From NCBI GenBank assembly GCA_965200965.1, contig OZ241744.1:1248001-1312000 (forward strand): a stretch of DNA of 64,000 bases, given 5' to 3'. This DNA comes from an uncultured Candidatus Binatia bacterium (GTDB lineage: Bacteria > Desulfobacterota > Binatia > Bin18). Made by a program: the position numbers and the translations under genes. Of the stretch, positions 20,710-23,566 are shown one piece after another; the first letter of the stretch is position 1; each line of letters starts with the position of its first letter. Under the pieces are notes generated by a model that worked only from the letters and a program-made list of their open reading frames with translations, searched no databases and was not told the DNA's origin.

Positions 20710-21454
20710 CTTCTCTCCCTCCTGCCCGCAAAAGATCAGCAACGGAAAGCCAGGCGCGGGCGGCAAGGTCATTATCGGTTCCCTCCGCCATGCTGGCAAT
20801 GGAGCGCCATTTTTCAATAGCTTCCTGAATCTTTCCCTCCCGCTCCAGTGCTCTGGCGTCGGTAACATCCCGGTTTATCGGAGAATCCGCAGGAAGCGTT
20901 TGGCCACTTCCCGCAGCTTCGGCAGCCTTACGCGGAGCGCCAGCGCTCGATGCGCCTGCCACCAATTGGTCCAAACGTCTCCTCTGTAACTTGGCTTTAT
21001 TAAGTTCCGCTCTGATCTCCTCAACGAGGCTCTTGGCTTCTTCTGCGTGTTGCTTGGATTTATCCACATTCTGGCGAGCTTCGGTCTCAATCTCGCGGAA
21101 TCTCCTGAAGCTGACGTAGCCGGCAAAGACAGCGATAACACCGAGCACGGTCAGGAATATGGCTATAGCGGTAAGCCACCAATCAACAAGTTTGGTACGG
21201 CCTGCAAGAAGCTCACGCCTGAGTTCGTTGAAACGTCGCTCCCATTCAACAGCAGTGGCGGCCTCGTTCAGCGCAGGCGATGGCTGATCGGGCCTGGGTT
21301 CGTTGCCAGGCGGTTGGGGTTCGGCGGTTGCATTCGTGCCGGTAGCGGATGGCTGCGCCTGCTGGGCGGGAAGGAGGCCGGGAGCTGTGGCCGCGGCGGC
21401 AAAAGCCAGGATGACGACCACAATCACGCGCCCAATCCGTGGGTATGCCATCAT
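20693..21454 (-). CDS. Membrane protein (N-terminal hydrophobic segment, one TM, coiled coil); possibly the N-terminal part of the TPR gene
   Basis: Hydrophobic N-terminus, TM WWLTAIAIFLTVLGVIAVFAGYV, coiled coil, TPR-like end. Start overlaps the hsdS stop (ATGA). Confidence 0.75.
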   Translation of the reverse strand: MMAYPRIGRVIVVVILAFAAAATAPGLLPAQQAQPSATGTNATAEPQPPGNEPRPDQPSPALNEAATAVEWERRFNELRRELLAGRTKLVDWWLTAIAIFLTVLGVIAVFAGYVSFRRFREIETEARQNVDKSKQHAEEAKSLVEEIRAELNKAKLQRRRLDQLVAGASSAGAPRKAAEAAGSGQTLPADSPINRDVTDARALEREGKIQEAIEKWRSIASMAEGTDNDLAARAWLSVADLLRAGGREDAGDQ

Positions 21455-23151
21455 GCAAGTCTCTCCACCTGTTCCGCGGCGTCACGGACACGGATGGCAC
21501 CCGAGAGGAGCTTGGGCAGCAGGGTATCCCGGAGGGCAGCGAGGGTCCGGGATTCGTAGACATTTGCCCGGATGCGAGCGTCTATCTCTCCAGCGATTGA
21601 GTGAAAACCATCAATAACTGCCCAGTTGGGTTCTAGTGTCATCAGCGTCTCAAATTGGTTCTTGGTGATAGCGCCAAACACGGTTCCTGTGTCTTCGTAT
21701 TGTCGCAACTCCTGCTGCATTGCCCAGACCGAATGGTAGGTGAAAGAACTTGATCCCGATTGATGTCGTAACGCAGCAATTCCTCGTCCAATGCAGGATC
21801 GCCCCCAAGCCAAGTTGATATCGCCAACGGGCGCTCGAACACTCACCAGCGTGTCGTCGGGTTCGGCGAAGCGAGTTGGAGCAGCGCAATACTTCCGGTT
21901 AGTAGGATATCGGAAACCGAAATCAGCCCGTCCTTGGAAAAAAGGCAACCCCTCACCGTGTTCATTATAGGTGCTGCCCGGAGGTGATTGTCCCATTGTC
22001 AGGTTGAAGCACTCGCCGAGGGGCTTGACCGTCCACCCGGCGGGAATCGGCCCCAATGCCGAGTCTACAAAGCGATCGGGGAACACGGCTGCCGTGGCCG
22101 CATCCAGCCGGTCCAGATAGGCCCGGGCCACCGGCCATGCACTTCCCCCTGGAGACGCGCGTTGTGTGAGAGCGGCTTTGGCATGCACGGGGTCAAAGTT
22201 GATGAACCACGAGGTGAACAACGCTCGGGCCATGTCGTCGAGCGTGACGTTCATGCGCCGGTTCACCTCGATCTTGGCGTCGAGCGTGCCGAGGATATGG
22301 GCGATGGCGCGTTGCTCGGGGAGGGGCGGCAACGCTAGTCTGATGGACTTCAGCGACGTAACCGGACGACTGATTGCCGGAACACCTGTCTGTGAGGTGT
22401 TCATCAGTAGGGCGTGTTGTCCGAGCGGAGACTTGAAGAAGTAGTAGAGGAAGGCTGGGACCACCTCTGAGGCTCGACAAGTCAGTTTCATTTGGCTTTG
22501 TGAAATGACGTATCTCTGGAACGGAGTATCAGGGATCAAGCCCACTTGCCCCAATGTACCGCGGTGCGTAAAGACCAGCTCGCCTGGATAAGCGTTGGCA
22601 CTTGCTAACTGGTCCGCCTTTTCGTCGGTCAGAAAGACAAAGCTCTCGGCTCGGAACCGTCCGGCTGTGAGATTGCCCCCGCGGATTACTGGAACTCCAG
22701 ATGGAACAAAATTATCGCTCTTTATGTCCGAGCCGAACGGACCCATCGCAACCTTCTCTGCAATCTCCTCTACGCTGGTCTCGTGCCATCCGACGCGCTT
22801 GCGTTCTTCCCGTTCTGCCACCACCACATATTCCCGCTCAATCTCCCGCTGAAAGCGCTCTGGCAGGTGCGCCCAGTCGCGGGCTTCCACCAGAAAGGGG
22901 ATGGTGGACTCCCGCAGGGCTTCCCGGAAGTCAGCCAGGCGGCCGGTTGGTATCTCTTGCAGGTCCGGGCCACGCAAGACTAGGTCCAGGTCGCTGCCGT
23001 CGTGGCTCTGGCCGTTCACCCGGCTGCCGTAGGCCCAGACCTCGACGCCAGGCAGGTGTTGGCGCAGCAGGGCTGCCAACTTCTCCCGATGCCGGGGCAA
23101 CAGATGCAGCCGGTCTGCCGGCTGGGCCGGGCCGGTACGCGGCTCAGTCAT
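21451..23151 (-). CDS. hsdS: Type I R-M specificity subunit with fused N-terminal minimal nucleotidyltransferase (MNT) domain
   Basis: N-terminal VWAYGSRVNG..GSDLDL (MNT), then TRD1, PPLPEQRAIAHILGTLD, TRD2 (MGQSP), LRDTLLPKLLSG. Confidence 0.92.
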   Translation of the reverse strand: MTEPRTGPAQPADRLHLLPRHREKLAALLRQHLPGVEVWAYGSRVNGQSHDGSDLDLVLRGPDLQEIPTGRLADFREALRESTIPFLVEARDWAHLPERFQREIEREYVVVAEREERKRVGWHETSVEEIAEKVAMGPFGSDIKSDNFVPSGVPVIRGGNLTAGRFRAESFVFLTDEKADQLASANAYPGELVFTHRGTLGQVGLIPDTPFQRYVISQSQMKLTCRASEVVPAFLYYFFKSPLGQHALLMNTSQTGVPAISRPVTSLKSIRLALPPLPEQRAIAHILGTLDAKIEVNRRMNVTLDDMARALFTSWFINFDPVHAKAALTQRASPGGSAWPVARAYLDRLDAATAAVFPDRFVDSALGPIPAGWTVKPLGECFNLTMGQSPPGSTYNEHGEGLPFFQGRADFGFRYPTNRKYCAAPTRFAEPDDTLVSVRAPVGDINLAWGRSCIGRGIAALRHQSGSSSFTYHSVWAMQQELRQYEDTGTVFGAITKNQFETLMTLEPNWAVIDGFHSIAGEIDARIRANVYESRTLAALRDTLLPKLLSGAIRVRDAAEQVERLA

Positions 23152-23566
23152 CGCCCGCTTCCTCAATGGCCGCGGCCAGTGCTCTGGCGTCCGTGATGAA
23201 GGTCGGCAGAAGCCGCAGGGTGGTTTCTGCAAAATCCTCGCCGTAGTCGTGCGCGGTGTCGTTGCGGTTGTCGCGGTACTGGAGCCAGCGTTCGGCGGCG
23301 TCGGCGGGGATCAGGCCGTGTTTGGCGGCATGACGGAAGATGTCCTTGAAGATCAGGCGGTCGGCCTGCTGGTTGCTGGCGAACCAGGGGCGCAGGCGCT
23401 TCTTGAGCAGCTTGCCGCTCTGTTCCAGCACCAGTTCAAACTCTTTGACACAGGCGGCACGGTAGATGTCGTAGGCGAACCCCTCCGAATCAGCGCTTTT
23501 GAGCGTGTTGAAGGCGACATCCAGCGTATCAATACAACGCCTCAGATGATCGGTGTTGATGGGCAT
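23144..23566 (-). CDS. HEPN-domain protein (HI0074-like nucleotidyltransferase substrate-binding family), putative RNase toxin
   Basis: YRAACVKEFELVLE, FKDIFRHAAKHGLI, RNDTAH (Rx4H). Stop overlaps the MNT-hsdS start. Confidence 0.88.
   Translation of the reverse strand: MPINTDHLRRCIDTLDVAFNTLKSADSEGFAYDIYRAACVKEFELVLEQSGKLLKKRLRPWFASNQQADRLIFKDIFRHAAKHGLIPADAAERWLQYRDNRNDTAHDYGEDFAETTLRLLPTFITDARALAAAIEEAGDD

Follow-up and report, generated by a model that had tools for sequence, protein, structure and literature searches.

A predicted HEPN-MNT toxin-antitoxin pair joined to the HsdS specificity subunit within a type I restriction-modification operon

Introduction

Class I HepT/MntA toxin-antitoxin (TA) pairs, represented by SO_3166/SO_3165 of Shewanella (PMC7641770), the HEPN-MNT pair of Legionella (PMC11586414) and HI0074/HI0073 of H. 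influenzae (structures 1jog and 1no5), share a PF08780 HEPN protein with an RX4HXY motif, encoded beside a PF01909 minimal nucleotidyltransferase (MNT) with a GSX10DXD motif. HEPN genes of the class belong to PF08780 or PF01934. HEPN/MNT pairs count among the most abundant TA modules (PMC7641770). We found such a pair in a 64,000-nt stretch of contig OZ241744.1 (hereafter the window; coordinates are window positions and the operon genes are all located on the minus strand). A HEPN gene adjoins an MNT there, both motifs are present, and the predicted folds are a HEPN bundle and a Pol-beta-like domain, which match 1jog/8xdj and 1no5/8xeo, respectively. Like HI0073 and the Legionella MNT, the window MNT is short and devoid of the long C-terminal helix. 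Yet, while the antitoxin of the described pairs is a free protein of ~110 aa, the window antitoxin constitutes the N-terminal domain of a full HsdS, the specificity subunit of a type I restriction-modification (R-M) system. The window pair differs also in that the toxin gene comes first, a Lys stands for the Legionella metal-site Gln, and both partners are encoded within an hsdM-hsdS-hsdR operon.

Two other systems connect toxins with type I R-M genes. In PrrC/EcoprrI (PMC3710099; PMC12707154), a HEPN nuclease is encoded within a type I hsd operon as a candidate second line of defence, much like in the window. However, PrrC combines an ABC-ATPase with the HEPN domain and is kept inactive through its binding to the R-M enzyme, whereas the window HEPN is a 140-aa single domain paired with a predicted enzymatic antitoxin. 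PrrC is moreover almost exclusively R-M-embedded (10.1101/2024.01.29.577857), in contrast to the window pair, whose relatives occur also away from R-M genes. In Ronin (10.1101/2023.04.06.535777), the hsdM and hsdS products are tied to toxin control and anti-restriction proteins trigger the system, but hsdR is absent and a 61-aa membrane toxin is suppressed by HsdMS; the window, in turn, has an intact hsdR, a predicted RNase and a covalent antitoxin-HsdS fusion. FhepTA (PMC13000451) is a fused form of the same TA family, in which the antitoxin is joined to the toxin; that paper mentions neither restriction nor HsdS.

One study (PMC3710099) extends the PrrC analogy to at least 16 clades of HEPN proteins encoded close to R-M genes and mentions that PF08780 proteins are now and then joined to MNT and to 'nucleic acid methylase domains'; HsdS is not named in the text of that study, of which Figure 5 and the full supplement might depict such a neighbourhood. 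Type I R-M systems are recognized as an embedding hotspot in a text that names neither HsdS nor MNT (10.1101/2024.01.29.577857; its candidate tables lie outside this comparison). We found no description of an MNT-HsdS fusion in the literature covered, which was mostly open-access and included the accessible parts of PMC2701414, PMC12839542, PMC7641770, PMC13000451, PMC11586414, PMC12707154, and PMC6158711. Apparently, the fusion is undescribed; HEPN genes in R-M operons, the PrrC analogy and type I R-M embedding are already in print.

The HEPN-MNT Pair and Its Junction to HsdS

The HEPN gene (23144..23566) encodes a 140-aa protein of the HI0074/PF08780 family (E 3.5e-17, 63 bits against a cut-off of 31.8), a predicted HepT-like RNase toxin, whose AlphaFold2 model is an HI0074-like helical bundle (template modelling score 0.78 with 1jog and 0.75 with 8xdj). 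Its RX4HXY motif, as defined in PMC7641770, is intact (RNDTAHDY, residues 101-108, with R101, H106 and Y108; 23243..23266), and Y108 is the predicted acceptor of AMP. By analogy with the characterized class I HepT/MntA pairs, the protein would be a toxic RNase neutralized by oligo-AMPylation. At the metal site, whose Gln and Glu are catalytic in the Legionella HEPN, K41 replaces Legionella Q44, and Legionella E47 is kept as E44; the Gln-to-Lys exchange is found throughout the window's clade, while most of the distant fused loci retain Gln.

The HEPN stop overlaps the start of the next gene by 8 nt. This gene (21451..23151; ATG at 23151) is a 566-aa open reading frame (ORF) with no internal stop, in which a predicted antitoxin, the HI0073-like MNT (residues ~11-112; 22816..23151), is followed by a charged linker of ~9 aa (22789..22815) and by the HsdS part (21451..22788). 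The MNT carries GSRVNGQSHDGSDLD at G42-D56, i.e., the GSX10DXD catalytic motif of PMC7641770 (G42, S43, D54, D56; 22984..23028), and has E89 as the third acid, where the aligned position of HI0073 is occupied by D. It matches PF01909 over residues 24-74 (23.7 bits, cut-off 21) and 1no5 with E 2e-13 (root-mean-square deviation of the AlphaFold2 model 1.2 Å), and ends in a strand, like HI0073. Three GTG codons close this strand just ahead of the linker, which contains neither a stop nor an ATG and is modelled with a per-residue confidence (pLDDT) below 50 at residues 116-119. In relatives, the linker spans 1 to 37 aa, most often 10 aa (38/123), and includes an ATG in only 5 of the 35 fused ORFs of the window's clade. 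The HsdS part matches PF01420 from residue 121 on and PADLOC Specificity_I over residues 122-563 (E 5.5e-91).

An earlier note on this DNA had described the order hsdM, HEPN with RNDTAHDY and in-frame MNT::HsdS with GSR..DLD, which is borne out by the reading frames and Pfam; its assignment of HEPN and MNT to their families agrees with the class I HepT/MntA motifs and with folds matching HI0074/HI0073. Of the overlapping stops and starts that it reported, the one between HEPN and MNT stands, while hsdM and HEPN are separated by a 145-bp gap (23567..23711). This gap, which is missing in many relatives whose hsdM directly abuts the HEPN gene, contains a hairpin repeat of ~50 bp, for which blastn finds 25 further matches in the genome.

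The junction was checked in the assemblies of four sequencing runs (14 runs were listed, four of them labelled sponge metagenome). Contigs of three of these four runs (X1, X2 and X4, from different studies) cross the MNT/HsdS boundary with 0 gaps, one contig showing 0 differences over 22516-22899; the listed pieces of the fourth, X11, do not reach across. The earlier note had asked whether reads would reveal a stop between MNT and HsdS, and contigs of three runs pass this point without an indel. A separate protein record, P0003, shares 99-100% identity with the window protein in the MNT and in the first target recognition domain (TRD). Of the 120 listed homologues, more than 100 can be aligned through the junction, so the fusion is not a chance event. 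An assembly artefact is ruled out by the gapless contigs, P0003 and these homologues.

The HsdS part, a member of the HindVIIP-like family, is modelled as TRD1, a conserved helix, TRD2 and a second conserved helix (the long helices spanning residues 277-317 and 510-550), and its best fold matches are HsdS structures. In the four closest proteins, the MNT is 96-99% and the conserved regions are 81-94% identical, while TRD1 and/or TRD2 are unrelated (~22%); the run contigs also contain joints that skip TRD2 or TRD1. Swapping of TRDs behind a fixed MNT is the pattern of a working, diversifying HsdS, and the window HsdS accordingly looks active. The engineered N-terminal HsdM-HsdS fusion of EcoKI works (PMC3510504), thus HsdS can tolerate a domain at its N-terminus. 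Elsewhere, the genome has two orphan hsdS genes of this family that lack MNT, hsdM and hsdR (G000:C1:1919859-1921217 and about 2603293-2604650, both on the minus strand). They share 88-90% DNA identity with the conserved regions of the window gene, the TRD2 of one of them is almost identical to that of a fused relative (P0005), and they likely represent a TRD reservoir or alternative specificity subunits.

Distribution of the MNT-HsdS Fusion

Of the 150 best clusters at 50% identity, 139 contain MNT plus HsdS, a count inflated by TRD variation, and six Atlas matches have the MNT+Methylase_S family set. The fused MNTs are diverse, with a median mutual identity of 39%, and GSX10DXD is kept in 131 of the 138 full ones. 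When longer proteins were retrieved with the MNT alone as query, the fusion partner was HsdS in 114 of the 120 listed. An unbroken MNT::HsdS occurs in 10 of 400 evenly drawn genomes (2.5%) of the Pseudomonadota, the phylum of locus L012; three candidates were scored per genome, and 11 of the 42 matches were fused under an E cut-off that favours fusions. An RX4HXY HEPN gene lies directly upstream in 8 of the 10 fused loci, one is cut by the contig end, and one has none. HEPN or MNT within 1.5 kb accompanied none of the 19 unfused hsdS loci of this sample. A search that set out from HsdS gave 80 metagenome loci, 7 of them fused, in a ranking that favoured fusions, and the toxin is intact in all five fused loci with enough upstream DNA; two further metagenome loci possess an unfused HEPN-MNT pair right before hsdS.

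The module is also found in a cultured bacterium: plasmid pZMOB01 of Zymomonas mobilis ATCC 10988 encodes HEPN, MNT::HsdS and hsdR, with both motifs intact, and an Acetobacter plasmid shows the same gene order, but with a stop between MNT and HsdS. Zymomonas ZM4 was considered as a natural deletion test and is unusable: PMC8432527 has no mention of a nucleotidyltransferase, and no ZM4 record is found among 40 of the 43 fused-MNT rows. Among close kin of the window genome, a few genomes have the full fusion and others have a solo MNT, and none of the 30 best PF08780 loci of the window's own phylum has an hsd gene within 1.5 kb (some flanks being short). Of 16 loci outside the sponge-type clade to which the window belongs, 14 have an upstream toxin with an intact motif. 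As for other N-terminal fusions, the 73 non-MNT HsdS loci include only one, to HsdM. In L119 (1230-4115), HsdM and HsdS are naturally fused, and an unfused HEPN-MNT pair lies between this fusion and hsdR.

Judged from these sequences, MNT::HsdS is a widespread, recurrent and strongly R-M-linked architecture. The domain-architecture search suggested in the earlier note, for MNT plus Methylase_S beside HI0074-like genes, thus returned a recurrent arrangement, and its claim that the TA and R-M modules are tied is strengthened.

Possible Role of the Fusion

Our preferred explanation, held tentatively and with slightly more doubt than confidence, is that a predicted type VII TA pair has been attached ahead of hsdS and provides an embedded second layer of defence, which would be locked to the R-M system and would not act as a specific sensor of anti-restriction proteins. 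By analogy with the characterized pairs, the HsdS-borne MNT would AMPylate Tyr108 of the HEPN RNase and thereby silence it. The HsdS moiety would continue to assemble with HsdM and HsdR because the HsdS N-terminus tolerates large fusions. The fusion would persist since undoing it is difficult: loss of the MNT start would cost the specificity subunit because HsdS has no ATG start of its own, and loss of the hsdS gene would cost the antitoxin too. With antitoxin and specificity subunit made as one product, toxin, antitoxin and R-M system would consequently be co-expressed and co-inherited. The least certain step is the release of the toxin, for which general effects of infection might suffice: antitoxin supply or ATP would fall while unmodified HEPN is still made, leading to growth arrest. 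RnlAB provides a precedent for defence by a HEPN TA system (PMC8266594), and genes embedded in type I R-M systems are frequently defence genes (10.1101/2024.01.29.577857).

Several points weigh against this explanation. An internal HsdS start might lie at the three GTG codons that close the MNT, which would weaken the lock-in argument, and K41 at the metal site may mean that the RNase of the window's clade differs or is weak. An RX4HXY toxin stands directly upstream of 22 of the 35 fused ORFs of the sponge-type clade, the remainder having a degenerate or Tyr-less toxin or none. The titles and abstract openings of five papers listed for HepT/MntA and phage defence give no indication of anti-phage activity of HepT/MntA. 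Finally, that fusion is so strongly preferred and that linkers are most often 10 aa long could reflect selection on a physical tether, which would favour a stricter form of coupling.

In that form, the MNT would work only, or best, while HsdS resides in the R-M complex, so that anti-restriction proteins or proteolysis would stop AMPylation and newly made HEPN would abort the infection. We regard this true guard function as possible, though clearly less probable than embedding without a dedicated sensor. The release of the toxin by anti-restriction proteins or by loss of hsdS, which the earlier note had inferred, draws on analogy only and remains similarly doubtful. That the locus represents a widespread but undescribed self-guarding subtype of type I R-M systems, in which HsdS would be the enzymatic antitoxin and DNA mimics or proteolysis of the complex would end AMPylation and free the RNase, is likewise a rather unlikely proposition. 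What speaks for a guard is the choice of HsdS as the near-exclusive fusion partner (114/120 listed), the excess of fused over unfused adjacent loci (10 vs. 0 in the even genome sample and 5 vs. 2 in those metagenome loci for which upstream DNA is available), the joining of diverse MNTs (median identity 39%) with their motifs intact, and the intact toxin in 14 of 16 loci outside the sponge clade. PrrC/EcoprrI (PMC12707154; PMC3710099) and RonA/Ronin (10.1101/2023.04.06.535777) serve as precedents. Evidence from the window's own clade, on the other hand, speaks against it.

Fused and Unfused MNTs in the Clade of the Window

The clade was sampled as 80 loci retrieved with the window MNT, mostly from metagenome-assembled genomes. 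The MNT is fused in 35 of them, 8 have an intact unfused hsdS, and 12 retain the MNT at a broken or partial R-M system. In the remaining 25, the nearest 7 kb are free of R-M genes. Intact hsdS is thus carried fused to MNT in 35 of 43 loci, and the chance of a random hsdM within such a stretch is, as a rough estimate, below 1%. Yet 45 of the 80 loci lack the fusion, MNTs without HsdS also stand beside intact toxins, and the MNT has outlasted the intact R-M system at 12 loci, all of which speaks against a guard.

Nor do selection and toxin integrity differ with the fusion. We detected no enrichment of intact toxins in fused loci, as RX4HXY precedes 17 of the 28 central MNTs that are fused and 36 of the 52 that are not (p=0.47). 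Pairwise dN/dS (the ratio of non-synonymous to synonymous substitution rates) relative to the window is 0.14 for 25 fused and 0.15 for 51 solo MNTs, and 0.22 and 0.19 for the HEPN proteins of 14 fused and 39 solo loci, respectively, these values being rough at a dS near 1.2. Both TA partners are under purifying selection, and no difference in selection between fused and unfused MNTs was found by pairwise dN/dS. On the MNT tree, the fused/unfused label changes 19 times, with at least 4 changes forced by well-supported branches, compared with 28 upon shuffling; the alignments comprise 101 columns and leave many forks unresolved, such that the number and direction of fusion events are not readable from the trees. 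A single stable fused clade is not supported, as fused and unfused states interleave on both trees, the second of which excludes the long-branch second MNT of L013. Against a guard count also the linker, variable in length (1 to 37 aa) and of low confidence in the model, and the MNT-less orphan hsdS genes, which could dilute the coupling. Moreover, AMPylation is covalent, so the existing toxin would stay off unless de-AMPylated.

The ease with which the two states seem to interconvert brings in an improbable alternative, namely that the fusion is a neutral passenger: an ordinary HepT/MntA cassette would have entered the hsdM-hsdS slot and lost its stop, and would spread only by way of the region upstream of TRD1, the homology arm in exchanges of TRDs and cargo; the TA pair would function independently, with HsdS as an inert tag. 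A single in-frame stop separates MNT from HsdS in 5 of the 8 adjacent unfused cases (L002, L047, L054, L067 and L082), i.e., the states are one codon apart, and the MNT stays constant while TRD1 is swapped. MNT-MNT and MNT-HEPN joins were found as well. The hsdM-hsdS gap can be seen as a cargo slot, because in relatives it also houses many unrelated TA cassettes and other genes (HicAB, VapBC, MazEF, HigBA, Fic, Schlafen and insertion sequence genes; of the 619 ORFs without a label, the scan covered 123, chosen as representatives of clusters and as neighbours). This alternative is, however, difficult to reconcile with the single other N-terminal fusion (HsdM) among the 73 non-MNT HsdS loci. In addition, 0 of 30 PF08780 loci of the window's phylum lie beside hsdM or hsdS, yet 2.5% of the sample of the other phylum are fused with motifs intact, which is hard to obtain by drift alone.

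Whether the pair is embedded or a guard, the locus offers a test of the physiological trigger of HEPN/MNT systems, since coupled and uncoupled states differ by a single stop codon and are both found in nature; a cultured, non-pathogenic carrier of this gene order is Z. mobilis ATCC 10988, whose pZMOB01 has both motifs intact. A true guard would place an enzymatic antitoxin alongside PrrC and Ronin as a further means of anti-anti-restriction. Deleting an MNT-bearing hsdS to improve transformation would remove the antitoxin as well. Even if the guard model is false, it is notable that MNT::HsdS genes are annotated as just 'restriction endonuclease subunit S' and that the window HEPN is left unmatched by PADLOC.

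Variant Architectures

The fused gene is elaborated further in many relatives. MNT-MNT-HsdS accounts for 22 of the 120 listed proteins, with second HEPN-MNT cassettes stacked in front, and a second HEPN type is encoded upstream in five fused loci of the window's clade. In L013 (5645-8608), L017, L030, L052 and L058, a second, Legionella-like HEPN-MNT cassette has entered the front end of the fused gene and so produced MNT-MNT-HsdS; upstream of it, L013 has retained the first HEPN together with a decayed copy of the former MNT start. Triple HEPN-MNT-HsdS fusions form one clade (P0032, P0051, P0053, P0059, P0064, P0145 and L043:6443-8578), in which RX4H is kept, the acceptor Tyr is replaced by Glu or Asp, and the MNT motif is intact. 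In an Acidobacteriota clade (L009, L010, L011, L019, L021 and L024), the HEPN lacks RX4H and the Tyr, and the MNT retains GSX10DXD.

Such MNTs bear on a further explanation, to which we assign very little probability, that the fused MNT has a second substrate: it would AMPylate HsdM or HsdR, or nucleotidylate DNA ends, and so regulate restriction, e.g., after a TRD swap, the HEPN being secondary. Consistent with it, GSX10DXD is kept where the upstream toxin is missing or motif-less (L004, L065 and L196; the L009/L011/L024 clade), and the triple fusions preserve the MNT motif despite the loss of the acceptor Tyr. However, the characterized MNTs of this class modify their HEPN partner (PMC7641770; PMC11586414), the cognate toxin is kept by most fused genes, and loss of the toxin before the antitoxin is the expected order of decay.

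Other joins were observed besides. A DUF559 or PF18741 nuclease-like domain is inserted in MNT::HsdS of P0057, P0087, P0098, P0105, P0110, P0294, P0315 and P0342. In L042 (7010-8230), an MNT of the same type is joined not to HsdS but to an unclassified domain of ~300 aa with no Pfam match at 1e-5. Elsewhere, the window genome harbours two small MNT-like genes in tandem (G000:C1:3572670-3573538, plus strand); both carry GSX10DXD, are distant from the fused MNT and might conceivably serve as back-up antitoxins.

Operon Layout and Neighbouring Genes

The operon reads hsdM, HEPN, MNT::HsdS, two cargo ORFs and hsdR, with full-length hsdM, hsdS and hsdR forming a complete type I R-M system. The N6-adenine methyltransferase subunit HsdM (23712..25352) is encoded by an open frame of 546 aa and matches PF02384 (N6_Mtase, 3.7e-103), PF12161 (HsdM_N) and PADLOC MTase_I (7e-211); it contains the NPPF motif. 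The restriction subunit HsdR (16424..19654; open frame, 1076 aa) is supported by HSDR_N, T1RH-like_C, TIGR00348 above its cut-off, and PADLOC.

The first cargo ORF (20693..21454), which overlaps the HsdS stop by 4 nt, encodes a predicted membrane/coiled-coil protein of 253 aa, and the second (19651..20868) a TPR-repeat protein with about nine repeats. In six relatives (L013, L025, L029, L039, L065 and L077) the two are a single TM-TPR gene, of which the first ORF corresponds to the 5' half; a frame change splits the window copy. The split is not an assembly error, since contigs of X1 and X2 traverse it without an indel.

A scan of the locus for promoters and terminators gave no signal beyond chance level. 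The hairpin repeat of the hsdM-HEPN gap belongs to a palindromic family of ~25-50 bp with about 25-35 matches in the genome. Its window copies (23640-23700, 24570-24700 and 25384-25432) are located in this gap, in frame within hsdM, and at the end of the upstream thioesterase gene.

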